Assembly (NCBI GenBank): GCA_905205975.1
Contig: CAJLFQ010000002.1
Coordinates: 10,134-74,133 of the forward strand
Direction of reading: 5' to 3'
Length of the DNA: 64,000 nucleotides
Origin: an uncultured Eubacteriales bacterium
Lineage (GTDB): Bacteria; Bacillota; Clostridia; Oscillospirales; QAMX01
This document shows, piece by piece, positions 4,704-22,788 of this stretch. Each line of letters begins with the position of its first letter. The first letter of the stretch is position 1. Below the pieces are notes generated by a model. That model was not told the DNA's origin. It worked only from the letters and a program-made list of their open reading frames with translations, and ran no database searches. The translations under genes and the position numbers were made by a program.

Positions 4704-5510
4704 ATGGTCATCCACATGATGAAAGTCTGTTACTTCCCGGGCTGTACGCTGCGCACCAAGGCGAAAACGCTTGACGTCTGCGCCAGAAAATCGGCGGAAG
4801 CGCTGGGCGTTGCACTCTGCGAACCGGAAAACTGGCAGTGCTGCGGCGGCGTGTTTGTCAGCGCGAAGGATGAAATCGCAACCAAGCTGTCGAGCGTCCG
4901 CGCGCTGATTGCCGCGCGGGATGCGGGCCAGCCGCTGGTGACCGTCTGCTCGGCCTGTCATAACGTCATCAAGCAGACGAACGACGCCGTGCAGAACGAT
5001 CCGGAATTTGCCGGAAAAGTCAACCGCTATCTCGCGCAGGACAAAACCGGCAGCGCGCCGTATGCGGGCGAAACGAAAGTATACCATTATCTGGAACTCC
5101 TGCGCGATGTCATCGGCTTTGACAAGCTCAAGGCCGCCGTCAAGCATCCGCTGACCGGCCGGAAAATCGCCGCCTATTACGGCTGCATGCTCCTGCGGCC
5201 CGGCAAGGTCATGCAGTTTGACGACGTGGAAAATCCGCGCATTCTCGAAGATTTTATCCGCGCGCTGGGCGCGGAACCGGTCGTTTCGCCGATGCGGAAC
5301 GAATGCTGCGGCGGATACGTCGCGCTGGAAGACCCGGCTTCCGCCCAAAAGAAGAGCCGTGCCGTCAGCGAAAGCGCAGCGGCGCACGGCGCAGAGGAAA
5401 TCGTGACGGCTTGTCCGCTCTGCCGCTACAACCTTGTGAAAAATGACAGCCCTGTCCCTGTCGTATACTTTACCGAGCTGCTGGCGGAAGCGCTCGGCGT
5501 CGAACTCTGA
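4704..5510 (+). CDS. hdrB: HdrB-like CCG-domain protein (heterodisulfide reductase B / SdhE / TfrB-type)
   Basis: Two CCG motifs: C..QCCGG-(34 aa)-CSAC and C..ECCGG..CPLC. The start could instead be ATG 4716. Confidence 0.85.
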   Translation: MVIHMMKVCYFPGCTLRTKAKTLDVCARKSAEALGVALCEPENWQCCGGVFVSAKDEIATKLSSVRALIAARDAGQPLVTVCSACHNVIKQTNDAVQNDPEFAGKVNRYLAQDKTGSAPYAGETKVYHYLELLRDVIGFDKLKAAVKHPLTGRKIAAYYGCMLLRPGKVMQFDDVENPRILEDFIRALGAEPVVSPMRNECCGGYVALEDPASAQKKSRAVSESAAAHGAEEIVTACPLCRYNLVKNDSPVPVVYFTELLAEALGVEL

Positions 5511-5530: not shown

Positions 5531-5929
5531 ATGCAGAATTCATCTGAACGCCTGAAAGAGCAGGTTCTGAGAATCAGCGGCGTCAACCCGCGCAAATGTA
5601 TGCGCTGCGGGAAATGCTCCGGAACCTGCCCCGCATATGACGAAATGGAATATCATCCGCATCAGTTTGTCTACCTGGTGGAAACCGGCGACATTGAAAC
5701 GCTGATGCAGTCAAAGTCCATCTACAAATGCCTGTCCTGCTTTGCCTGCGTGGACCGCTGCCCCCGCGGCGTGGAACCGGCAAAGCTGGTCGAAGCCATC
5801 CGCCTCAGCGTGATCCGCGAAAAAGGCGCCAACCACCTGACCGCAGACGATCTGCCGCCGCTTGCCGAAGCGGATCCGGATCTGCCGCAGCAGGCCGTTG
5901 TCAGCGCCATGCGGAAATATTCGAAATAA
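5531..5929 (+). CDS. hdrC: HdrC-like 2x[4Fe-4S] ferredoxin-domain protein
   Basis: CMRCGKCSGTCP and CLSCFACVDRCP cluster motifs. 132 aa, adjacent to the hdrB-like gene. Confidence 0.8.
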   Translation: MQNSSERLKEQVLRISGVNPRKCMRCGKCSGTCPAYDEMEYHPHQFVYLVETGDIETLMQSKSIYKCLSCFACVDRCPRGVEPAKLVEAIRLSVIREKGANHLTADDLPPLAEADPDLPQQAVVSAMRKYSK

Positions 5930-5947: not shown

Positions 5948-7942
5948 ATGCAAAGAATTGGCGTATTTGTCTGCCACTGCGGCACGAACATCGCCGGAAC
6001 GATCGACGTCAAAGCGGTCGCCGCAGCGCTCCTGCACGAACCGGGTGTCGTTTTCTCCGCTGATTATCCGTATATGTGCTCTCAGGCAGGGCAGAACCTC
6101 ATCAAGGAAGCCATTGCTGAACATCACCTGACCGGCATCGTCGTCTGCTCCTGCTCGCCGCGGATGCACGAGGCGACCTTCCGCAAGACGGCGGCGGCCG
6201 CCGGGCTGAACGCCTATATGGTCGAAATCGCCAACATCCGCGAACAGTGCTCGTGGGTGCACAAGGATATGGCCACCGGCACGGAAAAGGCCATCATCCT
6301 GGGCAAAGCGGCTGTCGCAAAGGTCAACCTGAACACGCCGCTGACGCCGGGTCAAAGCCCGGTCACGAAGCGCGCGCTCGTCATCGGCGGCGGTATCGCC
6401 GGCATCCAGACGGCGCTCGACATCGCCGACGCCGGTTTCCCGGTGGACATCGTGGAAACCAAGCCGACCATCGGCGGCAAAATGGCGCAGCTCGACAAAA
6501 CGTTCCCGACGCTCGACTGCGCGGCCTGTATCCTGACGCCGAAAATGGTGGACGTCGCACAGAACGAAAACATCCGCATCTTCTCGTATTCCGAAGTGAC
6601 CGCCGTCAAGGGCTACGTCGGCAACTTCGATGTGACGATCAAACGCCGCGCGCGCTATGTCAAAGAAGACCTCTGCACCGGCTGCGGCGCCTGCACGGAA
6701 AAATGCCCGCAGAAGAAAATCCCGAACGAATTCAACCTCGGCATGGATAACCGCCATGCAATCTATATCCCGTTTGCACAGGCCGTCCCGAAGGTTGCGA
6801 CGATTGACCCCGAACACTGCATGAAGCTCAAAACGGGCAAATGCGGCGTCTGCTCAAAAGTCTGCACCGCAGGCGCAATCGACTACGAAGCGAAAGACGA
6901 ATTCATCGATGAAAAGTACGGCGCCATCGTCGTCGCCACCGGCTTCGACCCGATTTCCATGGAGCCGTTTGACGAGTTCGCATACGCGCAGTCGCAGGAC
7001 GTCATCACGTCGCTCGAACTGGAGCGCCTGATGAACGCGGCCGGCCCGACCGGCGGCACGCTGCTGCGCCCGTCGGATCACGAACATCCGCACACGATCG
7101 TCTTTGTCCAATGCGTCGGGTCGCGCTGCGCGGCCTGCTCGGAAAAGGGCAAGGAATACTGCTCGAAGATCTGCTGTATGTACACCGCGAAACACGCGAT
7201 GCTCATCCGCGACAAATACCCGGACACCGACGTTTATGTCTTCTATATCGACGTCCGGACGCCGGGCAAGAACTTCGACGAGTTCTACCGCCGCGCCGTT
7301 GAAGAATACGGCGTGCATTATATCAAAGGCATGGTCGGCAAGGTTTCGCCGGAGGGCAAAAAGCTCAAGGTGCAGGCCTCTGACCTGATCTACGGCAAAC
7401 AGCTTCACATCGACGCCGATCTGGTCGTTCTGGCGGCCGCCATCGAACCGGACAAATCGGCCCGCCCGCTGGCGACGATGCTGACGGCCAGCATGGATAC
7501 GAACGACTTCTTCACCGAAGCGCACCCGAAGCTGCGCCCGGTCGAAAGCCCGACGGCCGGCGTGTTCCTCTCCGGCACCTGCCAGGGGCCGAAAGACATT
7601 CCGGAAACGGTCGCACAGGCCGGCGCCGCGGCGTCGAAAGTCATCGGCCTGCTCGCCAAGGATCACCTCGTCGGCAACCCGTGCGTCGCACATTCCGATG
7701 AGATGATGTGCAACGGCTGTTCCACCTGCGCCAACGTCTGCCCGTACGGCGCGATCACATATGAAGACAAAGACTTCAGGATGCCGGACCGCACGACGAA
7801 ACGCCGTCGTGTCGCCGTCGTCAACGAAGCGGTCTGTCAGGGCTGCGGCGCCTGCACCGTCGCATGTATGTCCGGCGCAATGGATCTGCGCGGCTTCCTG
7901 ACACGGCAAATCATGGCGGAGGTAGACGCGATATGCAAGTAG
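5948..7942 (+). CDS. hdrA: HdrA-like FAD- and Fe-S-containing oxidoreductase (putative bifurcating flavoprotein)
   Basis: N-terminal VFVCHCGTNI Cys domain; FAD fold ALVIGGGIAGIQTALDIADAG; FVQCVGSR. Inserted and C-terminal ferredoxin motifs: CTGCGACTEKCP, CGVCSKVCTAGA, CNGCSTCANVCPYGA, CQGCGACTVAC. Confidence 0.9.
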   Translation: MQRIGVFVCHCGTNIAGTIDVKAVAAALLHEPGVVFSADYPYMCSQAGQNLIKEAIAEHHLTGIVVCSCSPRMHEATFRKTAAAAGLNAYMVEIANIREQCSWVHKDMATGTEKAIILGKAAVAKVNLNTPLTPGQSPVTKRALVIGGGIAGIQTALDIADAGFPVDIVETKPTIGGKMAQLDKTFPTLDCAACILTPKMVDVAQNENIRIFSYSEVTAVKGYVGNFDVTIKRRARYVKEDLCTGCGACTEKCPQKKIPNEFNLGMDNRHAIYIPFAQAVPKVATIDPEHCMKLKTGKCGVCSKVCTAGAIDYEAKDEFIDEKYGAIVVATGFDPISMEPFDEFAYAQSQDVITSLELERLMNAAGPTGGTLLRPSDHEHPHTIVFVQCVGSRCAACSEKGKEYCSKICCMYTAKHAMLIRDKYPDTDVYVFYIDVRTPGKNFDEFYRRAVEEYGVHYIKGMVGKVSPEGKKLKVQASDLIYGKQLHIDADLVVLAAAIEPDKSARPLATMLTASMDTNDFFTEAHPKLRPVESPTAGVFLSGTCQGPKDIPETVAQAGAAASKVIGLLAKDHLVGNPCVAHSDEMMCNGCSTCANVCPYGAITYEDKDFRMPDRTTKRRRVAVVNEAVCQGCGACTVACMSGAMDLRGFLTRQIMAEVDAICK

Positions 7943-8394
7943 ACACGCAAGCAAACGAATACAGACCGCTCATCGTGGCGTTCTGCTGCAACTGGTGTTC
8001 CTATGCGGGCGCCGACCTGGCGGGCAATAACCGCCTGAGCTATCCGGCCGACGTCAAAATCATCCGCGTGCCCTGCTCCTGCCGGGTGAACCCGATGTTC
8101 ATCCTGCGCGCGTTCCAGCGCGGAGCAGACGGCGTCATTCTCTGCGGCTGCCACCCCGGCGACTGCCACTATACGTCTGGCAACTACTATACCCGCCGCC
8201 GGATGGCCCTGCTCTTCTCGATGCTCGACTACTTGGGCATTGAACGGCAGCGGACGCGCGTCGAATGGGTCTCTGCGGCAGAAGGCGCAAAATTTGCCGC
8301 AACGATGAAAGACTTTGTCGAAACCGTCGCCGCGCTCGGCGAGAACAAGAGATTGGAGGATTTACGATGCAAGCAATCGGACGCGAATCGCTGA
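7933..8394 (+). CDS. mvhD: MvhD/FlxD-like [2Fe-2S] electron-transfer protein
   Basis: IVAFCCNWCSYAGADLAG, VPCSCRV and CGCHPGDCHY motifs. ATG 7933 overlaps the hdrA stop by 10 nt. The track start at 7864 lies inside hdrA and is unlikely. Confidence 0.85.
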   Translation: MQVDTQANEYRPLIVAFCCNWCSYAGADLAGNNRLSYPADVKIIRVPCSCRVNPMFILRAFQRGADGVILCGCHPGDCHYTSGNYYTRRRMALLFSMLDYLGIERQRTRVEWVSAAEGAKFAATMKDFVETVAALGENKRLEDLRCKQSDANR

Positions 8395-9356
8395 TCGATA
8401 CCGCAAAACGCCTGCTCGAAAACGGCACGGTTGACCGTGTGCTCGGCTGGAAGCGCGGCGAATTTGCCTATGACGTGACGCCGGCGCTCTTCACTTCGGC
8501 GGAAGCGATGGCGCAGGATTTCGTTTGGAACGACTTCTGCGGTGCGAATTTCTCCAAATATCTCGTCAAAGAAACGGCTAAGGGCGACGGAAAAGTGCTT
8601 GTTTTCCTGAAACCCTGCGATACGTACAGCTTCAATCAGCTCCTGACCGAACACCGCTTTGACCGTGAAAAGGTCTATGCCGTCGGCATTCCCTGTGAAG
8701 GGATGCTCGACGCCGGGAAACTCCGCGCCGCGGCGGACGGTATTGCCGCCGTTCAGACCGAAGGCGACACGGTGACGGTCGAAACCCTGTACGACGGTAC
8801 GCGCACCTTCCCGCGTGAAACGATGCTGCCCGACCGCTGCGTACACTGCAAATCCAAAAAACACGTCGCCTACGACGAGCTGCTCGGCGAAGACGGCGAC
8901 GTGCGCGACGCCGGACGCTTCGACGAGGTCGAAGCGCTGGAACGGATGACGCCGGACGAACGGTTTGCCTTCTGGCAGAACGAGCTCTCCCGCTGCATCC
9001 GCTGCAACGCATGCCGCGACGTATGTCCGGCCTGCACCTGCGAAAAATGCGTATTTGACAACCCGAATTCCGGCGTTGAAAACAAAGCGGCGTCGAATTC
9101 GTTTGAAGAAAAACTCTTCCATATCATCCGGGCGTTCCACGTCGCCGGACGCTGCACCGACTGCGGCGAATGCTCCCGCGTCTGCCCGCAGCACATCCCG
9201 CTGCACCTGCTGAACCGGAAATTCATCCACGACATCGACCGCTTCTACGGCGATTATCAGGCGGGTGAAACGGTCGGCAGCCGTGCTCCGATTGTCAACT
9301 ATCAGACGGACGATCTCGAACCGGGTGAAGCGGTAGGAGGGCATGAACATGCGTAA
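8367..9356 (+). CDS. Fe-S cluster protein, FlxB/C- or sulfhydrogenase-beta-like polyferredoxin
   Basis: CIRCNACRDVCPACTCEKC and CTDCGECSRVCPQHIP motifs plus CVHCKSKK. ggagga RBS before ATG 8367. Overlaps the mvhD-like gene by 28 nt. Confidence 0.75.
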   Translation: MQAIGRESLIDTAKRLLENGTVDRVLGWKRGEFAYDVTPALFTSAEAMAQDFVWNDFCGANFSKYLVKETAKGDGKVLVFLKPCDTYSFNQLLTEHRFDREKVYAVGIPCEGMLDAGKLRAAADGIAAVQTEGDTVTVETLYDGTRTFPRETMLPDRCVHCKSKKHVAYDELLGEDGDVRDAGRFDEVEALERMTPDERFAFWQNELSRCIRCNACRDVCPACTCEKCVFDNPNSGVENKAASNSFEEKLFHIIRAFHVAGRCTDCGECSRVCPQHIPLHLLNRKFIHDIDRFYGDYQAGETVGSRAPIVNYQTDDLEPGEAVGGHEHA

Positions 9357-10374
9357 AATTGCACTGCATCAACTCGAATCGCTGTTTGCGGCCATCGAAG
9401 AGAACGCTGCGCTGTACCTGCCGGTCGATACGGCCGCCGGTGCAAAGTTCGAACGCTGGGCGCGCGGGAAAACGCTGTCCGACGCGCTGAACACCGTGCG
9501 CGGCCCGAAGGATTTCTTCTTTCCGCAGACGGAAAACCTGATGGACTTCAAAGTTGAAGGCAAACAGATTGAAATCATTGACACGCGCAAAGAAAGCGAA
9601 GATTTCGTCGTGTTCGGCGTCCGCGCCTGCGACGTCAAGAGCTTTGACATTCTGGACCGCGTCTTCCTGTCGGAGCCGGTCGATACCTATTACAAAAACC
9701 GCCGGGAACACGGCGTGATTTTCTCGCTCGCCTGCACGCGGCCGGCCGAAACCTGCTTCTGCGGGACGTTCGGCATCGACGCCGCAAACCCGGCCGGCGA
9801 CGTCGCCTGCTGGAAGACGGAAGACGCGCTCTATCTGGATGCGAAGACCGAAAAGGGCGCGGCGCTGCTTGCAAAGCTTGAAGCCGTGACCGAACCGGCC
9901 GAAACCGAACCGGTTGAAGCGCAGAAAGCGCAGACCGCCGAACGGCTGGCAAAGCTGCCGCTCGCTGACCTGAAGGCGGACGCCTTCGGCGACGGCAAGA
10001 CGTCGGCGTTCTTCAACGCGCCGGAGTGGAAATCGCTTTCGGAATCCTGCCTCGGCTGCGGCACCTGCACGTTTGTCTGCCCGACCTGCCAATGCTACGA
10101 TATCAAGGATTTCAACACCGGACACGGCGTCAAGCGCTTCCGCTGCTGGGATTCGTGCATGTATTCCGAATTTACCAAGATGTCGGCCGGTCAGCCGCGA
10201 CTGACGCAGCTGGAACGGTTCCGTCAGCGGTTCATGCACAAACTCGTTTATTATCCGACCAACAACGACGGGCTCTTCTCCTGCGTCGGCTGCGGCCGCT
10301 GCGTCGCAAAGTGCCCGATTCAGATGAACATCGTCAAAGTCATGAAAACGCTGGGAGGCCGAGAACATGCCTGA
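9349..10374 (+). CDS. AsrA/HydB-like 4Fe-4S protein (FlxB/C-like)
   Basis: FGVRACD, CTRPAETCFCGTFG, CLGCGTCTFVCPTCQCYD and CVGCGRCVAKCP motifs. aggagg RBS 8 nt before ATG 9349 (the track start at 9343 is also possible). Overlaps the upstream gene. Confidence 0.8.
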   Translation: MRKIALHQLESLFAAIEENAALYLPVDTAAGAKFERWARGKTLSDALNTVRGPKDFFFPQTENLMDFKVEGKQIEIIDTRKESEDFVVFGVRACDVKSFDILDRVFLSEPVDTYYKNRREHGVIFSLACTRPAETCFCGTFGIDAANPAGDVACWKTEDALYLDAKTEKGAALLAKLEAVTEPAETEPVEAQKAQTAERLAKLPLADLKADAFGDGKTSAFFNAPEWKSLSESCLGCGTCTFVCPTCQCYDIKDFNTGHGVKRFRCWDSCMYSEFTKMSAGQPRLTQLERFRQRFMHKLVYYPTNNDGLFSCVGCGRCVAKCPIQMNIVKVMKTLGGREHA

Positions 10375-11200
10375 AATGAAAGAACCGCTGATCCCGGCGA
10401 TCGGCGTTGTGACCGACATCCGCATCGACACGCCGGACGTCAAGACGTTCCGCGTCGTGACGCCGGACGGCAAAAAAGCGTTTGAGCATAAGCCCGGCCA
10501 GTGCGCCATGCTGTCGATTCCCGGCGTCGGCGAAGCGATGTTTTCCATCACCTCGTCGCCGACGAATGAAGCATTTATGGAGTTTTCCATCAAAAAGTGC
10601 GGCTGCGTGACCGAATGGCTCCATTCGATGGAGGTCGGCCAGCAGATTACGATCCGCGGGCCCTACGGCAACGGCTTCCCGGTCGATACAGCGTTCACCG
10701 GACACGACCTGCTGTTCATCGCCGGCGGCATCGGTCTTGCGCCGCTGCGCTCCGTCATCAACTACTGCCGCCACTACCGCGACCGTTACGGCAAGATCGA
10801 CATCGTCTACGGCTCCCGCAGCATGCAGGACCTCGTCGATTACCGTGAAATCGTCGAAGAGTGGACGAAGGATACCGGCGTCAGCGTCCATCTGACGATC
10901 GACCGCGAACAGCCGGAATGGGACGGCCATGTCGGATTCGTCCCGAATTACGTCAAAGAGCTGGCTTTCCCGACGGACAAAATTGCCATTCTCTGCGGCC
11001 CGCCGATCATGATCAAGTTTACGCTGGCCGGCTTGCAGGAGCTGGGCTTTGACAAAACGCAGGTGTATACGACGATGGAACTGCGCATGAAGTGCGGCAT
11101 CGGCAAATGCGGCCGGTGCAACATCGGCGCGAAGTACGTCTGCAAAGACGGTCCGGTTTTCCGCTGCGACCAGCTCGACGAACTGCCGAACGAATATTAA
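10367..11200 (+). CDS. FAD/NAD(P)H-binding ferredoxin-reductase-type subunit with C-terminal 2Fe-2S (AsrB/HydG/FlxA/PyrK-like)
   Basis: FNR-like fold (FEHKPGQCAML, FSITSSP, LLFIAGGIGLAPLRS). C-terminal CGIGKCGRCN cluster motif. Overlaps the upstream gene by 8 nt. gggagg RBS. Confidence 0.85.
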   Translation: MPEMKEPLIPAIGVVTDIRIDTPDVKTFRVVTPDGKKAFEHKPGQCAMLSIPGVGEAMFSITSSPTNEAFMEFSIKKCGCVTEWLHSMEVGQQITIRGPYGNGFPVDTAFTGHDLLFIAGGIGLAPLRSVINYCRHYRDRYGKIDIVYGSRSMQDLVDYREIVEEWTKDTGVSVHLTIDREQPEWDGHVGFVPNYVKELAFPTDKIAILCGPPIMIKFTLAGLQELGFDKTQVYTTMELRMKCGIGKCGRCNIGAKYVCKDGPVFRCDQLDELPNEY

Positions 11201-11327
11201 GGAGACCGCCGGACGGGCTTTTCGAAACGTCTGCGCGGCTCTCCCGAAAAACTTTTCTGTCCCTTCTGTCCCATGGATCCCAAGCACATCCAACCAATCC
11301 CACTCACACCACAAAAGGAGTGTATGC

Positions 11328-12005
11328 ATGATGGAAAACATGGTCAACGTCTTCCTGTTCGGGAAGCAGTATACGGTCCCGGGCGATCTGACGATTATGC
11401 GTGCCATGGAATATGCCGGCTATCAGCTGATTCGCGGCTGCGGCTGCCGGAACGGATTCTGCGGCGCCTGCGCGACCATCTACCGCATCAAAGGCGACCG
11501 GGAACTCAAAACGTGCCTCGCCTGTCAGACCAAGGTTGAAAACAACATGTATGTCGCGACCCTGCCGTTCTTCCCGCTGGTCAAACAGGTCTACGACATC
11601 AACAAAGTCAAACCCACCGAACAGATCATGATGCAGCTCTATCCGGAGATCTACGCCTGCGTTGGCTGCAACGCCTGCACGAAGAGCTGCACCCAGTCGC
11701 TGAACGTCATGCAGTACATCGCCTATGCCCAGCGCGGCGAATTTGACAAGTGCGCAGAAGAATCGTTCGACTGCGTGATGTGCGGCGTCTGTTCGTCCCG
11801 CTGCCCGGCCGGGATTTCGCATCCGCAGGTCGCCATGCTGGCGCGCCGCCTGAACGGCAAATACCTCGCCCCGAAGAGCGAACATCTGGAAGAACGCGTC
11901 AAGGAAATCAAAGACGGCACGTTCAACGACCTGATCGAAGCGCTGATGGGCAAACCGGTCGAAGAACTCAAAGAACTCTACAACAACCGCGAAATCGAAA
12001 AGTGA
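11328..12005 (+). CDS. frdB: Succinate dehydrogenase/fumarate reductase iron-sulfur subunit-like protein
   Basis: N-terminal 2Fe-2S motif CGCRNGFCGACATIY..C. Then CVGCNACTKSC and CVMCGVCSSRCPAG. aaggag RBS 7 nt upstream. Confidence 0.8.
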   Translation: MMENMVNVFLFGKQYTVPGDLTIMRAMEYAGYQLIRGCGCRNGFCGACATIYRIKGDRELKTCLACQTKVENNMYVATLPFFPLVKQVYDINKVKPTEQIMMQLYPEIYACVGCNACTKSCTQSLNVMQYIAYAQRGEFDKCAEESFDCVMCGVCSSRCPAGISHPQVAMLARRLNGKYLAPKSEHLEERVKEIKDGTFNDLIEALMGKPVEELKELYNNREIEK

Positions 12006-12018
12006 GGTGGCTCTGACC

Positions 12019-13614
12019 ATGTACGCGAACGAATTTCAGGAATCCCTCAAGGCGGTCGAAGCCGCCCGTCAAGCCAACATCGCCTATGAACCGGCGCGCA
12101 TGACCGCGCAGGAGAAAGACGATCTGCTGGCAGCCTATCACCCGGACTACAAGAAAAGCGAATTTTCAACGCTGAAAATCGGCCCGAACAAGGGCGAAAA
12201 TGTCCCGCATGAACTGTGCGATATGCTTCAGGCGCACAGCCGCATCTCCGCGGAAGACGTCGACCTCGAAGACATCCGCTATGACGTCGATGTGCTGATC
12301 ATCGGCGGCGGCGGCGCAGGCGCTTCTGCGGCTATTGAAGCCGACAACGCGGGCGCAAAAACCATGATCGTGACGAAGCTCCGCATCGGCGACGCCAACA
12401 CCATGATGGCAGAAGGCGGCATTCAGGCTGCCGACAAGCCGAACGACTCTCCGGCGATCCACTTCCTGGATGCCTTCGGCGGCGGTCATTTTGCGGCCAA
12501 ACGCGAACTGCTCGCCAAGCTCGTCTGCGATGCGCCGGAAGCCATTCAGTGGCTCAACGATCTGGGCGTCGAATTCGACAAAGCGCCGGACGGCACCATG
12601 ATCACCACCCACGGCGGCGGCACCTCCCGCAAGCGGATGCATGCCGCGAAAGACTACTCCGGCGCCGAAATCATGCGTACGCTCCGCGACGAAGTGCTGA
12701 ACCGCGGAATCCCGGTCGTTGATTTCACGTCGGCGGTCGAACTGATCCTCGATGAAAACGGCAGAGCCGCCGGAGCCGTCCTCATGAACATGGAGACGAA
12801 AGAGCTGATGGTTGCCCGCGCGAAAACCGTCATTTTGGCGACGGGCGGCGCAGGCCGGATGCATTATCAGGGCTTCCCGACCTCGAACCACTACGGCGCG
12901 ACGGCAGACGGTCTGGTGCTCGGCTACCGTGCAGGCGCAAAACTGCTGTATGCCGACACGCTGCAATACCATCCGACGGGCGCGGCCTTCCCGCAGCAGA
13001 TCTTTGGTGCGCTCGTCACCGAAAAAGTCCGCTCGCTCGGCGCGAAGCTCGTCAACCGCGACGGCAAAGTCTTCATGCACCCGCTGGAAACACGCGACGT
13101 TGCGGCGGCTTCGATCATCCGTGAATGCTCCGACCGCGATGAAGGCGTCGATACCGGCAGCGGCAAGGCCGTCTGGCTCGACACGCCGATGATTGAGGCC
13201 ATCGGCGGCGAGGGGACGATTGAACGCCGCATCCCGGCCATGATGCGTATGTTCGGCAGCTACGGCATCGACATCCGCAAAGAGCCGATCCTCGTCTACC
13301 CTACACTGCACTATCAGAACGGCGGTTTGGACATCCGCGTGGACGGCATGACGCCGAACGTGGAAAACCTGTATGTCGCGGGCGAAGCCGTCGGCGGCAT
13401 CCACGGCCGCAACCGCCTGATGGGCAACTCACTGCTGGACGTCATCGTCTTCGGGCGCAGCGCCGGTCAGCATGCCGCCGTGCAGGCGAGAACGGTCAGC
13501 AACGGTCGCCTGACGCTTGCCCACATCGCCGCGTTTGACGCGGAGCGGGCGGCGGCCGGCATCGAAACCGACCTCGTCTCGCCGAAACTCCTGCCGGATT
13601 ACCGCCGGAAATAA
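12019..13614 (+). CDS. frdA: Fumarate reductase/succinate dehydrogenase flavoprotein-like subunit (soluble type, non-covalent FAD predicted)
   Basis: DVLIIGGGGAGASAAIEA dinucleotide fold. Active-site-like motifs HPTG, VRSLGA, LHYQNGGL and HGRNRLMGNSL. The ATG at 12019 has an RBS (gaggtgg), whereas the track start at 12007 is GTG. There is a ~95-aa N-terminal extension. Confidence 0.85.
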   Translation: MYANEFQESLKAVEAARQANIAYEPARMTAQEKDDLLAAYHPDYKKSEFSTLKIGPNKGENVPHELCDMLQAHSRISAEDVDLEDIRYDVDVLIIGGGGAGASAAIEADNAGAKTMIVTKLRIGDANTMMAEGGIQAADKPNDSPAIHFLDAFGGGHFAAKRELLAKLVCDAPEAIQWLNDLGVEFDKAPDGTMITTHGGGTSRKRMHAAKDYSGAEIMRTLRDEVLNRGIPVVDFTSAVELILDENGRAAGAVLMNMETKELMVARAKTVILATGGAGRMHYQGFPTSNHYGATADGLVLGYRAGAKLLYADTLQYHPTGAAFPQQIFGALVTEKVRSLGAKLVNRDGKVFMHPLETRDVAAASIIRECSDRDEGVDTGSGKAVWLDTPMIEAIGGEGTIERRIPAMMRMFGSYGIDIRKEPILVYPTLHYQNGGLDIRVDGMTPNVENLYVAGEAVGGIHGRNRLMGNSLLDVIVFGRSAGQHAAVQARTVSNGRLTLAHIAAFDAERAAAGIETDLVSPKLLPDYRRK

Positions 13615-13635: not shown

Positions 13636-13944
13636 ATGACAGATTTTCTTGAGGCCATGACCATCTTCTGCTTTGGTCTTTCGTGGCCGATCTCCATCCG
13701 CAAATCGCTCGTCTCCCGCACGGCAAAGGGCAAGAGCCTGTTCTTTGAAATCTTCCTCCTGATCGGCTACGCCTGCGGCATCGCCCGCAAGGTGATCCAG
13801 ACGGTAGAGGGCAGCAGCGGCTTCCTCTTCTATCTGAGCTTCTTCTTCTATGTGCTGAACTTCATCGAGATCTCCATCGACGTCATGCTGTACTTCCGGA
13901 ACAAAAAGCTGGACGAAGCGGCGGAAGCGGCACAGCTGGCATAA
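13636..13944 (+). CDS. Small 3-TM membrane protein (PQ-loop/SemiSWEET-like, tentative)
   Basis: 102 aa with three hydrophobic segments and a WPISIRK loop reminiscent of a PQ-loop. Begins 21 nt after frdA. Function not established. Confidence 0.5.
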   Translation: MTDFLEAMTIFCFGLSWPISIRKSLVSRTAKGKSLFFEIFLLIGYACGIARKVIQTVEGSSGFLFYLSFFFYVLNFIEISIDVMLYFRNKKLDEAAEAAQLA

Positions 13945-13992: not shown

Positions 13993-14622
13993 ATGAAACA
14001 GGCAGAAGTATCCCGGGCGACCATCGGCCGGATCCCGACATATCTGAAATACCTGAAGAGCATCCGGCACACGGAGACCATTTCGGCAACGGCCCTCGCG
14101 CATGCGCTTGGGCTGGGCGAGGTGCAGGTGCGGAAGGATCTGAGCGCCGTCTCCGGCGCGGGGCGCCCGCGGGTCGGATACCATACGCGTCAGCTGATCC
14201 GTGCGTTTGAATCCTTCCTGAGCGGAGACGACAGCCTTGTCGTCATCGCCGGCGCGGGGAAGCTCGGCCGGGCGCTGCTCGATTACGGCGGGTTTGACGA
14301 ATACGGTCTGCACGTTGCAGCGGCGTTCGATATCGCCGTTCAAACGGCGGAACAAAGCAACACCGGCAAGCCGGTTTTCCCCATGCGGGAGCTGGCGGAT
14401 TTCTGCCGGACGCACGCGGTCCGCATCGGCGTCATCGCCGTCCCGGCGGAAGCGGCGCAGTCGGTCTGCGACCAGTTTCTGACCTGCGGGATTCAGGCGA
14501 TCTGGTGCTTTGCACCGTGTATGCTGCATGTGCCGGAAGGGTTCCCGGTGCAGTATGAAAACATGGCGCTGTCGCTGGCGCATCTGAACAAAAAAATCCA
14601 GTGCGCAGAGACGCCCAAATAG
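13993..14622 (+). CDS. rex: Redox-sensing transcriptional repressor Rex
   Basis: N-terminal winged-helix VSRATIGRIPTYLKYL. Rossmann VVIAGAGKLGRALL. 209 aa. Confidence 0.9.
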   Translation: MKQAEVSRATIGRIPTYLKYLKSIRHTETISATALAHALGLGEVQVRKDLSAVSGAGRPRVGYHTRQLIRAFESFLSGDDSLVVIAGAGKLGRALLDYGGFDEYGLHVAAAFDIAVQTAEQSNTGKPVFPMRELADFCRTHAVRIGVIAVPAEAAQSVCDQFLTCGIQAIWCFAPCMLHVPEGFPVQYENMALSLAHLNKKIQCAETPK

Positions 14623-14663
14623 AACGCGCAACCTGATTAGAAACCAGAAAGGACATCGATTTT

Positions 14664-14909
14664 ATGAAAGTAACCGTTTGTATCGGCTCTTCCTGCCATG
14701 TCAAAGGTTCGCACAGCGTGGTCAAACAGCTGCAGGAACTGATTCAGGAAAAAGGCCTTGAAGACAAAATTGAGCTTGCCGGCACGTTCTGCATGGGCAA
14801 ATGCCAGCTCGGCGTCTGCACAACCGTAGACGGCGAATTCTATTCCGTGACGCCCGAAACGACGAAAGCGTTTTTTGAAAACGACATCCTGCCGAAGCTT
14901 GATGCATAA
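14664..14909 (+). CDS. Thioredoxin-like [2Fe-2S] ferredoxin-type protein
   Basis: 81 aa with a CIGSSCHVKG...CMGKC Cys pattern. Sits immediately upstream of the hydrogenase. Confidence 0.7.
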   Translation: MKVTVCIGSSCHVKGSHSVVKQLQELIQEKGLEDKIELAGTFCMGKCQLGVCTTVDGEFYSVTPETTKAFFENDILPKLDA

Positions 14910-14945
14910 GAAACGTTCGCCAATTTCTGTTTTTGGAGGTTTACC

Positions 14946-16370
14946 ATGCGGAAATTCGATACGAAAGTACAATTACTGAAATACAAAGTCCTGCGGGAAG
15001 TCGCCCGTCAGGCATGGCAGGGAACGCTGACCGAAAACCTTCTGGACATTCCGAAGACGATCATCCCGGGCAACACGCCGACAATGCGCTGCTGCATCTA
15101 CAAGGAGCGGGCGATCATCGAGGAACGCGTCAAAGTCGCCATGGGCGGAGACAAGTCGAATCCGAACGTCATCGAGGTCATCGAAATCGCCTGCGACGAA
15201 TGCCCGATCGGCGGCTGCGAAGTGACCAACGCCTGCCGCGGCTGTCTGGCGCACCGCTGCGAAGACGCCTGTCGGTTCGGCGCCATCTCGTTTGACGATC
15301 AGCACGTCGCGCACATTGATAAGACCAAGTGCAAAAACTGCGGCGCCTGCTCGAAAGTCTGCCCGTATACGGCGATTGTCAGCCGGAAGCGCCCGTGCGA
15401 AAATGCGTGCAAGATCAAGGCCATCGAGATGAACGAAAACAAGACGGCCGGCATCGATAACAGCAAATGCATCGCCTGCGGCGCCTGCGTCTACCAGTGC
15501 CCGTTCGGCGCCATTATGGACAAATCGTTCATTTTGGACGTCATCGACATTCTCAAAAAGAGCGAAAACAACACGCAGTATAAAGTGTTTGCCGTGGTTG
15601 CGCCGGCGATTTCGAGCCAGTTTACCTATGCGAAGCTTGGTCAGGTCATCACCGGGCTGAAAGAACTTGGCTTCCACACCGTCGTCGAAGCGGCGCTCGG
15701 CGCCGATATGGTCGCCAATGCAGAGTCCAAGGAACTGGCTGAAAAGGGCTTTTTGACCAGTTCCTGCTGCCCGGCGTTTGTCAGCTACATCGAAAAATCC
15801 TTCCCGGAGCTGAAGCCGTTTGTTTCCCACAACCTGTCGCCGATGGCGACGATCGCAAAATACATCAAGGAGCATGAGGCACCCTGCAAGGTCGTTTTCA
15901 TCGGCCCCTGCACGGCGAAGAAAGCCGAAGCGCAGCGGGAGGAAGTCAAACCGTATGTCGATGCGGTCATGACGTTTGAAGAGCTTCAGGCGCTGTTCGA
16001 CAGCAAGGATATGGATATCACGGCGCTGCCGGAAAACCTGCTGGACAACGCGTCGTATTTCGGCCGGATCTTTGCCCGTTCCGGCGGGCTGAGCGATGCC
16101 GTGCGCGAAGGCCTGAAGGAAAACGGCATCGAAGATTTCGAGCTGAAGCCGTGCGCCTGCGATGGCATTGAAGCGTGCCGCATCGCGCTGCTGAAAAAAT
16201 CAAAGAATCTCCTGACCGAAAACTTCATCGAGGGGATGGCGTGTACCGGCGGCTGCATCGGCGGCGCCGGGTGCTTGACCCACGGCGAGAAAAACAAGGC
16301 GGACGTCGACCGCTATGGCAAAGAGGCGTTTGAAAAAACCATCTCCGACGCCATTTCTGCGCTGGAATAA
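14946..16370 (+). CDS. [FeFe] hydrogenase catalytic subunit (monomeric, multi-ferredoxin-domain type)
   Basis: H-cluster motifs TSCCPAFV, FIGPCTAKK and MACTGGCIGGAGC. Upstream ferredoxin motifs CKNCGACSKVCPY and CIACGACVYQCPFGA. Confidence 0.9.
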   Translation: MRKFDTKVQLLKYKVLREVARQAWQGTLTENLLDIPKTIIPGNTPTMRCCIYKERAIIEERVKVAMGGDKSNPNVIEVIEIACDECPIGGCEVTNACRGCLAHRCEDACRFGAISFDDQHVAHIDKTKCKNCGACSKVCPYTAIVSRKRPCENACKIKAIEMNENKTAGIDNSKCIACGACVYQCPFGAIMDKSFILDVIDILKKSENNTQYKVFAVVAPAISSQFTYAKLGQVITGLKELGFHTVVEAALGADMVANAESKELAEKGFLTSSCCPAFVSYIEKSFPELKPFVSHNLSPMATIAKYIKEHEAPCKVVFIGPCTAKKAEAQREEVKPYVDAVMTFEELQALFDSKDMDITALPENLLDNASYFGRIFARSGGLSDAVREGLKENGIEDFELKPCACDGIEACRIALLKKSKNLLTENFIEGMACTGGCIGGAGCLTHGEKNKADVDRYGKEAFEKTISDAISALE

Positions 16371-18550: not shown

Positions 18551-18639
18551 ATGCCCTTTTGGCGTGCGGCGGAGCCTGCGGGTTTGCGGCAGGTACATGA
18601 CAAGAGCCTGCGTCGCGATGAGAAGGAAGAAGGCGTTTT

Positions 18640-18795
18640 TTCCCCGGCGGATTTGGCGGATTTGCCTTTTCCCCGGCGGATCCCCGCGCTTCCACCTCAT
18701 CCGGTTCTTTGTTTTTCCCCGAAAAGCAAAGAACCACCTTCCCCTCGTAGGGGAAGGCTTTGATTCGCCGCAGCGCTTTCCTTCGCTTGCAGTCC
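18640..18795 (+). repeat. Family A variant 1 repeat, extended ~150-nt form
   Basis: Core ttccacctcatccggttctttgtttttccccgaaaagcaaagaaccaccttcccctcgtaggggaaggc (18690-18758). The flanks match the inverted copy at about 37695-37850 (ggatccccg.., gcgaaggaaagcgct..). Confidence 0.8.
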
Positions 18796-18800
18796 ACCTG

Positions 18801-19850
18801 CTACTTGGTCGTGGGTTCCAGCGTCGTACCGGGGTAATAGTGCGACAGAATGGCGGCGGCGCTGTGGCCGTCGGCGGCCATGACTTTCGCGCCGTTCTGG
18901 CTCATGCCGACGCCGTGACCATACCCTTCTGTTTCAAACCGGATGCGTCCCGCGCCTTGGGTCACGGTAAACGAGGCGCTGCGCAGACCGCAGAGCGCGC
19001 GCAGTTCGCCGCCGGTGACCGTGACGCCGCCGACGCGGATCGTCTGCACCAAACCGCCCGCCGTGCGGACTGCGTCGGTGAACCAGTCGGATCCGTCGCG
19101 CAGCACGGCCGACGGATGGCGGCTGCAAAACATCTGACGGAATTCGGCGCAGTCGAATACGACGGCATTCCGCCAGCCGTTCAGCGCGGATTCGCCAGCC
19201 GGTGCGTCGACGCTGACGAGATACGGAACTTCGCCGCCCCAGACGTCGGCGCTGCTGTTCGTCGTCCGCCCGGACATCGCGTGAAACACAGCAAGGATCG
19301 GCTCGCCTGCATAGGTGAGAATCTGCCCGGATGTGTCGGCGACGGCATTTCGGATGCGGTCGGCGTATGTCTGCCCCTGCTCGCCCCAGCCTGCCGCCAG
19401 CGCGTTGAGGTCGGCCAGCGCGCAGCAGTGCGCCGGGTTATCGCAGAGGACAGCCGCTTCATGCGCGGAAACCGGGTGTGCCGCGCGGTAGCAGATGTAT
19501 GTCCGCGCGGCGATGGCCTGCGCCTTGAGCGCCTCCGCCGGGTAAAGCGCCGGCATTTCGGCGGCGACAATGGCGGCGACGGTCTCGTCCAGCGTCATCT
19601 GCGTCTCGACGCCGTCCACCAGCACGGTGATGCGCGAAGTGGTTTCCGGCGCTTGGATGGGCTCTCCGGTATCCGCCGGTTCATCGGAAGCAGCGGGTGG
19701 TGCAACGGTGCTGGCGGAGGCGGCCGGCGTGCTGGGGGATGCAGTTGTTTCCAGTGCGGGCAGCGCGTCTGCCCGGCTGGAAAAGATGGCCAGCGGCAGC
19801 GCAAAGGATGCCGCCAGCAGGCATAAGGTGAAAATCAGGCTTCGTTTCAT
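18801..19850 (-). CDS. spoIID: SpoIID/LytB-domain stage II sporulation protein D
   Basis: Signal peptide; ALKAQAIAARTY, AVFHAMSGGRTTNS-like, VPYLVSVD and GYGHGVGMSQNGA motifs. Confidence 0.85.
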   Translation of the reverse strand: MKRSLIFTLCLLAASFALPLAIFSSRADALPALETTASPSTPAASASTVAPPAASDEPADTGEPIQAPETTSRITVLVDGVETQMTLDETVAAIVAAEMPALYPAEALKAQAIAARTYICYRAAHPVSAHEAAVLCDNPAHCCALADLNALAAGWGEQGQTYADRIRNAVADTSGQILTYAGEPILAVFHAMSGRTTNSSADVWGGEVPYLVSVDAPAGESALNGWRNAVVFDCAEFRQMFCSRHPSAVLRDGSDWFTDAVRTAGGLVQTIRVGGVTVTGGELRALCGLRSASFTVTQGAGRIRFETEGYGHGVGMSQNGAKVMAADGHSAAAILSHYYPGTTLEPTTK

Positions 19851-19942
19851 GTTTGTCTCCTCTTTTCGTATCGATGCCGCCGCAGGGCGGTCATTTCTTT
19901 ATATGCGCCGATGCGGAAAAACAGACCGCCCCGTGACCATAT

Positions 19943-19988
19943 GAAAAGAAAAACGCCCGCTGCACAGAAGCCTGTGCAGCGGGCGTTT
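19943..19988 (-). terminator. Terminator after the vWA-domain protein gene
   Basis: aaacgcccgctgcacag-aagc-ctgtgcagcgggcgttt. On the minus strand it is followed by tttttctttt. Confidence 0.75.
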
Positions 19989-20055
19989 CGCGCCTGCGCG
20001 GTGATTTGGAGAAATGCAAAAGTGAATGCAGAGATGGATGCGGCGAAGCGGCGCG

Positions 20056-22788
20056 CTATTGAATCGACGCGAGCAGCGCTTCAAAGTTGCCCGCCATGAC
20101 GTACGCCATATTCGGGCCGACCGAGTTGGTTTCTTCGTAGTGGCTGCGCCCCTGGCAGACCTTGTTGCCGTTGATATACGGCAGCGTCGGGTGCAGCAGG
20201 AAGTCGTTGGGCGGCACGACGTAGCCGGTCATATCGTTGGACAGACCGAAGACGATCAGGTCTTCGTTGTTTTCGCCGAACGTCTTGCCGTAACGGGCTG
20301 CGATTTCCACGAAGGTCTCCGGGTTCTCGGCATCCGGGTTGTGCGGGTCGGTTTCAATGCTGCCGGTGATTTCCGTCAGCAGACCGCCGTAGACGAGTTC
20401 CGGGAACATTTCGCCCGGCGTGAGGACGATGCTCTTCTTCCGGGCGCCGTCTTTCTGATAGAATTCAACCCAGCTCATCTCCGTCGTCGAGCAGAGCGGC
20501 AGATTCTGCTGCGTCATGCGGAAGTAGGACTGTGCGAACGAGGCAAGCGCATACCCGATCAGTTCACCTTCCGACAGACCGGAATCCTTGTAGCGGTTGT
20601 AGGCTGCGCGCATGTCGGCGAGCGCCGCAGCAAACTGCGCCGGATCGGCAAACCCGCGCGCGGTGCTGCGGATCCCGGTGGAAACGTCTTTCTGATAGAC
20701 GCGCGTGTCGATGATGCCGAGAGAGGCGACGAGACCGAGCAGATAGTTGTCGATCTGCGTTTCAAACGTGCGCGAGGTGAAGTTCAGCTTGGGCGCCAGC
20801 TCAAACTCGTTGTCCACGCTGACGGCCAGCTCGCCGACGCGGCGCCCTGTGACCTGCGTGATTTCCCAGAATTTATGCCGGTCGTTGCGCGGAACGAAGC
20901 TTTCCGGGTATTCGTGTTCCTTGGTTGTCCGGATCAGACCGCCGATGGCGCCGGTGAAGAACGCGAAATCGGCGTTGGCTTCGGTATCCAGATAATCGGC
21001 GAGCGGCGCTAAGAAGTCGGCGCTGGCGGCGGGGTTCGGGCCGTAGAGCGCTTCTACATGAACCGGCAGATGGAGCAGCCAGATTTCACGGCGGGAGGCG
21101 TCGTCCGGCGCGAAGCGGAACCGGGTCAGGATGTTGGCGTTTTCGGTCACATAGGGGTAGCGCGTATCTTCCGGGAGCGGGCAGCCGTATTCGGTCTGGC
21201 TGCGGGCGTCGGCGCTGCCGGCATACAGACGGCCCGTGGTACGCGATTCGTAGGCGGCGATGGCGGCGTTTTTCACGGCGTTTTCAACCTGTTCCATATG
21301 GGACGGGTCTTTGGCGTCGAGCAGGAGCTTGCCCCACATGCCGAACGTATCGACCATGGCGTGGTTGTGGTCGCACATGATGTGGATTTCACGGATGTTG
21401 TTTTCGTGGGCAAAGACGGCCAGACTGTCGCGCATTTCGTTGACGGTCGAGCGGCTCATGCCGACGGATTCAACGGCGATCAGCAGGACGCCGCCGCGGC
21501 CGGTGTTGTCGTCGAGGTAGATGGCGCGGGCGTATGCCTGATCGATCCAGCCGAGGCAGGGCTTATCGTTGCCGTAGCCGGCCATCCAGTAGCGCGTCTG
21601 CGGCAGCGACCAGACGGGCAGCGCTTCCTGGAAAGCGGCGACTGCATCGGCTTCACCGTCGGTGCCCAGCGCGGATTCGAGCGCCGCACAGGCTTCTGCG
21701 ACGGAAGCGGCATAGGCGGCGTAATCCGCGTCAAACGTTGCGGCGCAGGCTGCGACGGTTTCCGGGTTGAACGGCGGATCCAGCGGCAGCACGCGGTTCA
21801 AAAACGATTTCCACGAGGTTTTCAGCGCGGCGCGCGCATCTGCCGGATAGGCGGCGTACGCCGTGTCAATGGCGAGATAGGCGTCCATCGCCGTGCGGAG
21901 CGTACCGGTCAGCGCGGCGGGATCAAACGACAGGTCTTCGCCGAAAATCGAGCGGTCATAGAGCGCGTTTTCCGGCAGATCCGAAGGACGGTAGCTTAAG
22001 AAGGGGAGGTCGGAGGGGATGATGCTTTCTTTCCCGAAGCCGGCTGTCCACGTTGACCCCGCGGAGACGGTGTCAAAACCGGTTTCTGCAAACAGCGCGG
22101 CACAGATTTCGGCGCCGGACGCGGTCTGCTGGAAATACCCTTTGTTCTGCGCGGCGCAGAGCAGCTTTTCGCTGCGGGAGCCGCTTTCAACCGCGATGCC
22201 GGCCGACACGATGTCGATGCCCCAGTCGCGCATCAGGTGGGCCTGATCGAGCGCCGCGTCCACAGCGGCATCCGTTTCAAACAGGCCGGTGCCAAGCGTC
22301 TGGGTGTCCGTCGGGTCACAGTAGTACTGCGCCTTGCCTGCGCTGATGAGCACGACGGCCTGCTTGACGCCGGAACGGCCCTCGGTCTGGAGCAGATCCG
22401 TCGCCGCCAGCAGGGCGGCTTCTACGTTGGCTTTCTCGCTGGAACGGAGAATGGTGGTGACGGTTGATTTCAGAAGCGTACGGTTTTTGCTGAAGGTGCG
22501 TGCGACGGCCGCTTCTTTGTCGAATGCGACAATAGCGACGCGGCTGCTGTCATTGCCGGAGAGGACAGCGTCAATCACGCTTTGGGCCAGGCTGCGCGCC
22601 GGGCGCATTTTCCGCACATAGGTGGAGGAATGCAGTGCTTGGGAACGGAACTCTTCATTCATGTTGTCGGAGCGGTCGAGCAGGATGACGACATCCGCGG
22701 GGTCGGTGCCGCTGTCGGCGACGGCGCAGGGCAGAATGCCTGCCAGCATCACACAGACCAGCAGGAGGCTCAGGAGACGTTTTCGCAT
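20056..22788 (-). CDS. Large secreted protein: N-terminal vWA domain fused to a neutral-ceramidase-like hydrolase domain (tentative)
   Basis: Signal peptide MRKRLLSLLLVCVMLAGILPCAVA. vWA-like DVVILLDRSDNM...VAIVAFD. Later MAGYGNDKPCLGWIDQAYARAIYLDD..GVLLIAVESVG...IMCDHNHAMVD resembles the ceramidase N-terminal pattern. Coding is certain, function is not. Confidence 0.6.
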   Translation of the reverse strand: MRKRLLSLLLVCVMLAGILPCAVADSGTDPADVVILLDRSDNMNEEFRSQALHSSTYVRKMRPARSLAQSVIDAVLSGNDSSRVAIVAFDKEAAVARTFSKNRTLLKSTVTTILRSSEKANVEAALLAATDLLQTEGRSGVKQAVVLISAGKAQYYCDPTDTQTLGTGLFETDAAVDAALDQAHLMRDWGIDIVSAGIAVESGSRSEKLLCAAQNKGYFQQTASGAEICAALFAETGFDTVSAGSTWTAGFGKESIIPSDLPFLSYRPSDLPENALYDRSIFGEDLSFDPAALTGTLRTAMDAYLAIDTAYAAYPADARAALKTSWKSFLNRVLPLDPPFNPETVAACAATFDADYAAYAASVAEACAALESALGTDGEADAVAAFQEALPVWSLPQTRYWMAGYGNDKPCLGWIDQAYARAIYLDDNTGRGGVLLIAVESVGMSRSTVNEMRDSLAVFAHENNIREIHIMCDHNHAMVDTFGMWGKLLLDAKDPSHMEQVENAVKNAAIAAYESRTTGRLYAGSADARSQTEYGCPLPEDTRYPYVTENANILTRFRFAPDDASRREIWLLHLPVHVEALYGPNPAASADFLAPLADYLDTEANADFAFFTGAIGGLIRTTKEHEYPESFVPRNDRHKFWEITQVTGRRVGELAVSVDNEFELAPKLNFTSRTFETQIDNYLLGLVASLGIIDTRVYQKDVSTGIRSTARGFADPAQFAAALADMRAAYNRYKDSGLSEGELIGYALASFAQSYFRMTQQNLPLCSTTEMSWVEFYQKDGARKKSIVLTPGEMFPELVYGGLLTEITGSIETDPHNPDAENPETFVEIAARYGKTFGENNEDLIVFGLSNDMTGYVVPPNDFLLHPTLPYINGNKVCQGRSHYEETNSVGPNMAYVMAGNFEALLASIQ

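Follow-up and report, generated by a model that had tools for sequence, protein, structure and literature searches.

In Pseudoclostridium thermosuccinogenes, a 'succinate operon' made up of a fumarate hydratase gene, seven Flx-Hdr genes, two fumarate-reductase genes and a gene for a hypothetical protein was proposed to couple NADH-dependent fumarate reduction to ferredoxin reduction (PMC7282089, 2020). In tubeworm symbionts and Thioflavicoccus mobilis, tfrAB genes are interspersed with flxABCD-hdrABC in clusters of the reductive tricarboxylic acid (rTCA) cycle, and a bifurcating complex was likewise proposed (Rubin-Blum et al. 2019, PMC6315080); a later study of the tubeworm symbionts backed this with transcript data (Mitchell et al. 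2024, PMC11636981). Here we describe a locus of this kind in a 64,000-nucleotide stretch (the window) of DNA from an uncultured Eubacteriales bacterium (assembly GCA_905205975.1, contig CAJLFQ010000002.1, positions 10,134 to 74,133), and in particular its FrdA-like flavoprotein, encoded at 12019-13614 on the + strand (positions are those of the window). The flavoprotein gene comes last among the catalytic genes of a conserved mdh-fumC-hdrBCA-flxDCBA-FeS-flavoprotein cluster, and the system belongs to the already proposed, uncharacterised Flx-Hdr-linked kind of fumarate reductase; what follows adds detail to a published hypothesis and does not open a new one. The added detail concerns an Asn at the site of covalent flavin adenine dinucleotide (FAD) attachment, as in Shewanella Fcc3, the loss of a C-terminal domain, a conserved N-terminal arm and evidence against its docking onto Hdr/Flx, and a putatively portable core with swappable electron donors.

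The published description of the P. thermosuccinogenes operon matches the window in gene inventory and order, and its hypothetical gene sits where the window has a small hydrophobic open reading frame (ORF) (PMC7282089). The window differs in its gut Oscillospirales-type host, in an extra mdh upstream, and in rex and an [FeFe] hydrogenase gene downstream. The tubeworm-symbiont tfrAB likewise encode a two-subunit soluble fumarate reductase linked to Flx-Hdr, but in a setting of autotrophic CO2 fixation rather than fermentation. Methanothermobacter TfrAB, described by Heim and colleagues in 1998, is also soluble and also takes up electrons through SdhB-, HdrC- and HdrB-like modules, which in TfrB are wired to the fumarate-reducing flavoprotein; its donors are coenzyme M (CoM-SH) and coenzyme B (CoB-SH). 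TfrB is, however, a single fused protein, whereas its counterpart in the window is split over three genes.

Shewanella Fcc3 (1d4c, 1qjd) resembles the window flavoprotein in being soluble, in having Asn at the histidine position and the same catalytic residues, and in lacking the complex-II C-terminal domain, but it is a single periplasmic polypeptide with an N-terminal tetrahaem domain; the window protein has no haem motif and a separate iron-sulfur (Fe-S) subunit. Hydrogenobacter thermophilus reportedly has a soluble five-subunit NADH-dependent fumarate reductase, described by Miura and colleagues in 2008, which to our knowledge is the only soluble NADH:fumarate reductase of a reductive TCA branch shown biochemically. 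All seven subunit types of Desulfovibrio vulgaris FlxABCD-HdrABC are present in the window by domain content. The acceptor that Ramos and colleagues are said to have proposed for the D. vulgaris complex in 2015 is the DsrC disulfide; unlike D. vulgaris, the window encodes a fumarate reductase core within the Flx-Hdr operon.

The flavoprotein gene specifies 531 amino acids from an ATG preceded, 8 nt upstream, by the Shine-Dalgarno sequence GAGGTGG. We favour the ATG at 12019 as the start, since the other candidate, a GTG at 12007, falls within the Shine-Dalgarno sequence. A start further downstream, which would delete the N-terminal extension, is ruled out by the Shine-Dalgarno sequence and by conservation, which begins at residue 1 in all 80 of the best genome relatives and at about residue 25 in distant ones. 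Pfam placed FAD_binding_2 at residues 91-472 (E 9.5e-68), leaving a C-terminus of about 60 residues beyond the FAD domain. The canonical C-terminal domain PF02910 (Succ_DH_flav_C) gave no match at E≤0.01 with the whole protein or at E≤10 with the tail, and is replaced by a short tail (residues 473-531, 13435-13611) in which H502, P522, L524 and P526 are conserved between clades. The initial annotation had not remarked on the lost domain.

No curated NCBIfam cutoff was reached by the flavoprotein. The best match was the TfrA equivalog NF004900 (321 bits against a cutoff of 718, aligned to positions 6-407 of 546 only), and the sdhA_frdA model TIGR01812 gave 269.9 bits (cutoff 567), the NadB model TIGR00551 266 bits (cutoff 452.75) and the flavocytochrome c model TIGR01813 202 bits (cutoff 285). 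The top structural match found with Foldseek was E. coli FrdA (1kf6_A, E 5.8e-33); the FrdA/SdhA matches span only about 430-455 columns, with a query TM-score near 0.7. An AlphaFold2 monomer model built from a 76-sequence alignment had a mean predicted local distance difference test (pLDDT) score of 83.6 and a predicted TM-score (pTM) of 0.86, its low-confidence spots, including residues 127-131, being cofactor and substrate loops. The protein has the Rossmann and capping-domain fold of FAD_binding_2 together with the catalytic His/Arg/Thr-Glu set of the complex II flavoproteins SdhA and FrdA, and by sequence it is a FrdA/SdhA-fold flavoprotein of predicted fumarate-reductase type.

The near-level scores of the NadB and Sdh/Frd models raise the question of whether the enzyme is instead L-aspartate oxidase-like, or another enoate or 2-enoate-type reductase of the FAD_binding_2 superfamily. 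The set of catalytic His and Arg residues is shared with NadB, which, like the window protein, has no flavinylation histidine, and the failure of the flavoprotein to meet any curated cutoff would also fit such an assignment. We nevertheless consider it very improbable: an Fe-S partner is obligatory in the flavoprotein family and NadB has none, the equivalent NadB residue is Ser and not Asn, and the neighbours of the family across four phyla are genes for malate dehydrogenase, fumarase, malic enzyme or 2-oxoglutarate:ferredoxin oxidoreductase.

The initial annotation had claimed that the histidine forming the covalent FAD bond is absent, and this was borne out by alignment. In phmmer searches against PDB, GDANTMMAEGG of the window protein aligned with GKAHTVMAEGG of the M. 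smegmatis Sdh (7d6v) and TRSHTVSAQGG of E. coli SdhA (1nek), so that Asn127 (codon AAC, 12397-12399, + strand) replaces the flavinylated His. A second search showed that the Shewanella flavocytochrome c fumarate reductase 1d4c has Asn at the equivalent position ('PIPGGNTKLAAGG'), a residue typical of the soluble Fcc3 enzymes, whose FAD is non-covalent. A motif count over 313 retrieved relatives gave Asn in 296, His in 10, Lys in four and other residues in three. In a 16-sequence alignment, Asn was present in all ten extension-bearing members, which extend down to 41% identity (phmmer), and His and the C-terminal domain were retained in three SdhA/TfrA-like sequences. Two of these three are near-TfrA (690 and 625 bits on the NCBIfam TfrA model) and, unlike the window flavoprotein, have no N-terminal extension. 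Judged from these alignments, Asn127 is a family-wide feature and neither a sequencing error nor a chance substitution. Because the flavinylated His is replaced, FAD is most likely bound non-covalently.

The catalytic set is otherwise retained, with no mismatch to a dicarboxylate site: H318 (HPTG), T334-E335, R338, R359, H431 (HYQNGG) and R466 (HGRNRL) are all present, and all but T334 are invariant in the 16-sequence alignment. The retention of the fumarate-site motifs noted at the outset therefore stands, but the Arg in VRSLGA that was listed among them is not the proton donor. That Arg, R338, has R381 as its Fcc3 equivalent. Alignment to SdhA and Fcc3 assigns the role of proton donor (FrdA R287, Fcc3 R402) to R359 in ETRDVAA. 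Covalent FAD is required for succinate oxidation, as FrdA His44 variants indicate, and this is the basis on which the enzyme had been called unidirectional. A reductive-direction fumarate reductase with non-covalent FAD is plausible and agrees with both the residues and the gene context.

The genes from mdh through the flavoprotein gene, all on the + strand, appear to form one operon. Its first gene (2316-3260) encodes a 314-residue lactate dehydrogenase (LDH)-like protein with Ldh_1_N and Ldh_1_C domains. This protein scores above NCBIfam L-lactate dehydrogenase cutoffs, but has Arg at the Q/R specificity position (IARKPGQTR), which we take to be a malate-dehydrogenase signature; the enzyme is probably a malate dehydrogenase of the LDH-like kind, and automatic annotation would give it the wrong name. 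It is followed by fumC, a class II fumarate hydratase gene (3299-4675; TIGR00979, 702 bits against a cutoff of 664.75; Lyase_1 and FumaraseC_C). Next come an HdrB-like subunit (4704-5510) with PF02754 twice and two intact CCG motifs (C14, C45-C46, C82, C85; C161, C200-C201, C236, C239), which matches SdhE and HdrB models equally, an HdrC-like subunit (5531-5929) with two [4Fe-4S] motifs, and an HdrA-like flavoprotein (5948-7942; Pyr_redox_2, Fer4) that matches positions 1-641 of 777 of the HdrA2 model with 783 bits and presumably houses the bifurcating FAD site. The C-terminal MvhD part of HdrA2 is matched by the adjoining FlxD/MvhD-like subunit (7864-8394; PF02662 FlpD, E 1e-54 from residue 37), whose true start is probably downstream of 7942.

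The remaining Flx subunits are a FlxC-like Fe-S protein of uncertain start (8265-9356; Fer4 dicluster domain), conserved in 66 of the 80 loci described below, a FlxB-like Fe-S protein of the sulfhydrogenase beta / AsrA type (9343-10374; Fer4_22, similarity to ShyB and AsrA), and a FlxA-like NAD(P)H-binding flavoprotein with a 2Fe-2S site (10367-11200; FAD_binding_6, NAD_binding_1 and DHODB_Fe-S_bind, similarity to sulfhydrogenase gamma and AsrB). The seven Flx-Hdr subunit types are thus all represented, with the cofactor motifs that were looked for among them. Just upstream of the flavoprotein gene lies the gene for a 225-residue Fe-S subunit (11328-12005) with a 2Fe-2S motif, two CxxCxxCxxxC ([4Fe-4S]) motifs and weak similarity to the N-terminal part of SdhB and TfrB. 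Together, the Fe-S subunit, the HdrC-like protein and the HdrB-like protein tile archaeal TfrB at 19-94, 123-219 and 262-486, each far below the curated TfrB cutoff (36 against 385). This tiling provides a precedent for CCG-type modules wired to a fumarate-reducing flavin. No SdhC/SdhD-type membrane anchor gene was found among the neighbours of the flavoprotein gene, which include only the small hydrophobic ORF (13636-13944, + strand, 102 residues), an optional accessory present in 24 of the 80 loci.

The cluster is conserved well beyond the window. In a genome scan using one genome per species, at least 598 matching stretches encoded a relative of the flavoprotein, and locus counts refer to the best 80. 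These 80 relatives are 79-92% identical to the window protein over its full length, all come from gut or rumen Clostridia, and include that of the isolate Yeguia hominis NSJ-40 (91% identity). When cluster conservation was scored by tblastn of 13 window proteins, the ten genes fumC-hdrBCA-mvhD-flxCBA-FeS-flavoprotein were present in nearly every one of the 80 loci whose contig reached far enough, two long loci lacking a fumC match only. The Fe-S subunit gene adjoins the flavoprotein gene in 79 of the 80.

From these features we propose, with moderate confidence, that the flavoprotein provides the catalytic site, with non-covalent FAD, in a soluble fumarate reductase core of two subunits, and that this core serves as the acceptor module of a bifurcating FlxABCD-HdrABC complex. 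The core would consist of the flavoprotein and the 225-residue Fe-S protein and would constitute the high-potential branch. NADH would be oxidised at FlxA, and FlxB, FlxC and FlxD would relay the electrons to the HdrA FAD, at which the pair would be split; one electron would go uphill to ferredoxin and the other downhill via HdrC and HdrB to the Fe-S subunit, the FAD of the flavoprotein, and fumarate. With textbook midpoint potentials of about +30 mV for fumarate/succinate, -320 mV for NAD+/NADH and about -450 mV for ferredoxin, such coupling is exergonic. The position of the flavoprotein gene behind those for the LDH-like malate dehydrogenase and class II fumarase fits a reductive oxaloacetate-to-succinate branch.

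The same gene context bears on the opposite direction, in which reduced ferredoxin would drive succinate oxidation and yield NADH by electron confurcation. Flavin-based bifurcating complexes are reversible in principle, but loss of covalent FAD disfavours succinate oxidation, as seen in FrdA His44 variants, and the upstream mdh and fumC match the reductive branch. Moreover, succinate is an excreted product of P. thermosuccinogenes, whose operon is of the same type (PMC7282089). We accordingly rate confurcation as highly unlikely.

The other distinctive feature of the flavoprotein is its N-terminal extension (residues 1-90, 12019-12288), whose core motif in the window is LLAAYHPDY...GPNKGENVPHEL. 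An extension without a counterpart in classical FrdA or SdhA had been put at about 95 residues by the initial annotation; its existence is upheld, but its length is about 90 because FAD_binding_2 begins at residue 91. The motif is conserved across four phyla, and in the form LLxx[YF]HPDY...GPNxGE..P.EL is kept across clades down to 41% overall identity, so that no downstream start can remove the extension. It contains a single Cys, no cluster motif and no CxxCH. No known domain was recognised in it: no Pfam match was obtained even at E≤10, Foldseek gave no counterpart, and a 17-sequence profile gave no PDB match, the top hit being a chance match to Ubp6 (E 0.12). The idea that the extension is the missing C-terminal domain in circularly permuted form was rejected at the sequence level, a comparison with a TfrA-like protein by hhalign giving a probability of 0.15%.

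AlphaFold2 modelled the extension as ordered on the monomer, with helices at 4-22, 30-40 and 64-70, short strands at 49-51 and 61-63, and pLDDT blocks of 77-96; this confident placement is more in keeping with an integral structural element than with a floppy tether. Among 79 gut-clade orthologues and the window protein, pairwise identity was 89.5% in the core but lower in the extension (70%) and the C-terminal tail (69%), a pattern typical of peripheral or interface elements. Extension and tail, we infer, are structural additions shared by the whole family and take the place of the missing canonical C-terminal domain.

To place the flavoprotein in its wider family, relatives were collected by an exhaustive search of cluster representatives and follow-up searches. 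Extension-bearing, Asn-carrying relatives, down to 41% identity, were found in Clostridia, Gammaproteobacteria, Bathyarchaeia, Asgard archaea and one Prochlorococcus genome. A search with one relative (P0121) that was aimed at P. thermosuccinogenes returned an archaeal clade instead. In Gammaproteobacteria, the orthologues are 44-46% identical to the window flavoprotein and lie in a three-gene operon encoding an Fe-S subunit (208-212 residues), the flavoprotein (539-545 residues) and a NuoF-like protein (417-419 residues), with no Hdr/Flx genes within 10 kb. The hosts are sulfur-oxidising Endoriftia, Sedimenticola and Thiorhodococcus, and in Endoriftia the operon adjoins mdh, citrate synthase and korAB. 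The locus of the inspected orthologues, with its NuoF-like partner, is other than the rTCA tfrAB cluster. The three-gene operon is a candidate non-bifurcating soluble NADH:fumarate reductase. We did not find this compact operon described; it occurs in Endoriftia-like bacteria, Thiorhodococcus minor and marine metagenome-assembled genomes (MAGs) (loci L081-L084, each at about 9350-12890).

In the archaea, the neighbours differ again. The Bathyarchaeia locus encodes malic enzyme, class I fumarase, the Fe-S subunit and the flavoprotein, and the Asgard locus encodes POR, HdrA, MvhD, MvhG, MvhA, HycI, HdrC, HdrB, the Fe-S subunit and the flavoprotein. The latter, in an Asgard MAG (L086, 2563-11656), is a candidate H2-dependent (Mvh-Hdr) fumarate reductase; its HdrA frame is broken at 4143, where no gene is called, which could reflect selenocysteine or an assembly error. 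The Fe-S subunits of the window and of Gammaproteobacteria are homologous (29% identity, E 4e-35). A natural fusion of Fe-S subunit, extension and flavoprotein, in the same order as in the window, is encoded on a 7.7-kb NCBI contig (P0123, 727 residues), and the window Fe-S subunit matches its N-terminal part (E 5e-53). The partner sets across lineages indicate that the Fe-S subunit and flavoprotein form a constant unit and that the electron-input module varies.

Two further groups of relatives were noted. Prochlorococcus sp. MIT 1201, an unexpected host for an anaerobe-associated flavoprotein family, encodes an extension-bearing homologue of the Asn type (P0136 / P0285, WP_413360575.1; 43% identity by phmmer). 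Relatives of about 400 residues (P0167, P0174, P0176 and others) lack the extension and the C-terminal domain and usually the His, having Asn or Lys in its place. They were set aside as a different subfamily; 10 of 13 have PET(.R) in place of the TE(..R) hinge/proton-relay motif; the PET.R motif hints at a different substrate.

The distribution of the extension speaks to its proposed role as a dock for the Hdr/Flx module. This role had some appeal: the extension is family-specific and conserved, many of the proteins bearing it are encoded near Hdr genes (in Clostridia and Asgard archaea), and it diverges faster than the core, as surface or interface elements often do. The loci outside Clostridia do not, however, support the suggestion. 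The HPDY/GPNxGE extension is kept in the gammaproteobacterial operons, with their NuoF-like protein and no nearby Hdr/Flx genes, in Bathyarchaeia beside malic enzyme and fumarase only, and in Asgard archaea beside Mvh hydrogenase and HdrACB but not Flx. Only the Fe-S subunit is a partner in every case, the P0123 fusion has the extension immediately after the Fe-S domain, and the extension is ordered on the modelled monomer. Docking onto Hdr/Flx is therefore improbable; most probably the extension contacts the Fe-S subunit and is not a Flx/Hdr-specific dock.

The family comparison likewise bears on the main rival to the proposed bifurcating complex, namely thiol-mediated coupling as in Tfr. The core plus HdrB and HdrC would then act as a thiol:fumarate reductase, and Flx-HdrA would re-reduce the disulfide of a small thiol or a DsrC-like protein, so that the two halves would be joined by a diffusible or protein-bound thiol/disulfide couple and not by a continuous Fe-S wire. 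Both CCG motifs needed for disulfide chemistry are complete in HdrB, TfrA is the top NCBIfam match of the flavoprotein, and the Fe-S subunit, HdrC and HdrB jointly tile TfrB. One of two models in the literature, moreover, invokes a DsrC-like or ferredoxin route (PMC11636981). Against these points, no DsrC-like or thiol-carrier gene lies within the conserved cluster, and the curated TfrA and TfrB cutoffs are both missed by a wide margin. CoM and CoB are, besides, not known in Clostridia. The gammaproteobacterial orthologues manage with a NuoF-like partner alone, and no CCG protein is encoded nearby, which argues that the core does not need thiol chemistry. On balance we hold thiol-mediated coupling to be unlikely, though less so than Hdr/Flx docking of the extension.

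Several points weigh against direct bifurcation to fumarate all the same. Our literature searches brought up no biochemical or structural study of a bifurcating fumarate reductase, and a 2026 survey still terms the bifurcating complex 'suggested' (PMC13147460). In Endoriftia, tfrAB expression diverged from that of the rest of the Hdr-Flx cluster (PMC11636981). In the window, flxA and the Fe-S gene lie 127 nt apart. Conserved gene order is no proof of a physical complex, or of a direct wire from HdrB/HdrC to the Fe-S subunit, and the missing His argues for non-covalent FAD but does not prove it.

A broader and more tentative proposal, which we think possible but somewhat less probable than not, is that the Fe-S subunit and Asn-type flavoprotein are an ancient, portable soluble fumarate reductase cassette. 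It would serve at least three electron-input machines, namely Flx-Hdr with NADH in Clostridia, a NuoF-like protein with NADH in sulfur-oxidising Gammaproteobacteria, and Mvh-Hdr with H2 in Asgard archaea; the window system would be a truly bifurcating NADH:fumarate/ferredoxin oxidoreductase, and arm and tail would be an adaptor replacing the complex-II C-terminal domain.

If the complex does bifurcate, fumarate reduction would supply succinate-forming Clostridia of gut and rumen with reduced ferredoxin, with no need of a membrane-bound quinol:fumarate reductase; H2 production or Rnf-based energy conservation could draw on this ferredoxin. Given the number of stretches encoding a relative (at least 598), models of gut fermentation would need altered redox and ATP balances. 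Fumarate would join the short list of high-potential acceptors in flavin-based bifurcation, and the complex would represent a new bifurcating enzyme class that is widespread among gut Clostridia. For experiments, the Asn that replaces the His, the N-terminal arm and the loss of the C-terminal domain offer direct handles, and the cultured relative Y. hominis NSJ-40 a source organism.

The operon is bordered by a promoter-like site and by genes outside the conserved cluster. Upstream of mdh, a promoter-like site (2248-2276, + strand) consists of TTGCCA, a 17-nt spacer and TG-TATAAT, a consensus match only, at 11 of 12 positions; the preceding gene ends with a terminator-like hairpin at 2043-2067. 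Downstream, the Rex redox-sensing repressor (13993-14622, + strand; NF003994, 224 bits against a cutoff of 130) has counterparts in 16 of the 80 loci and is followed, within 13993-16370, by a monomeric group B1 [FeFe] hydrogenase found in 11 of the 80. The window yielded no canonical Rex operator: there is no site 5' of the operon, and the one match elsewhere has three mismatches where 1.7 such matches are expected by chance. Further along, at 18564-22788, three + strand ORFs (420, 328 and 313 residues) without a Pfam match are overlapped by a 910-residue ORF on the - strand (20056-22788). At the left end of the window (18-1883), the sole Pfam match of a 621-residue ORF is a partial S-layer homology repeat at its extreme N-terminus, and this gene probably starts upstream of the window.

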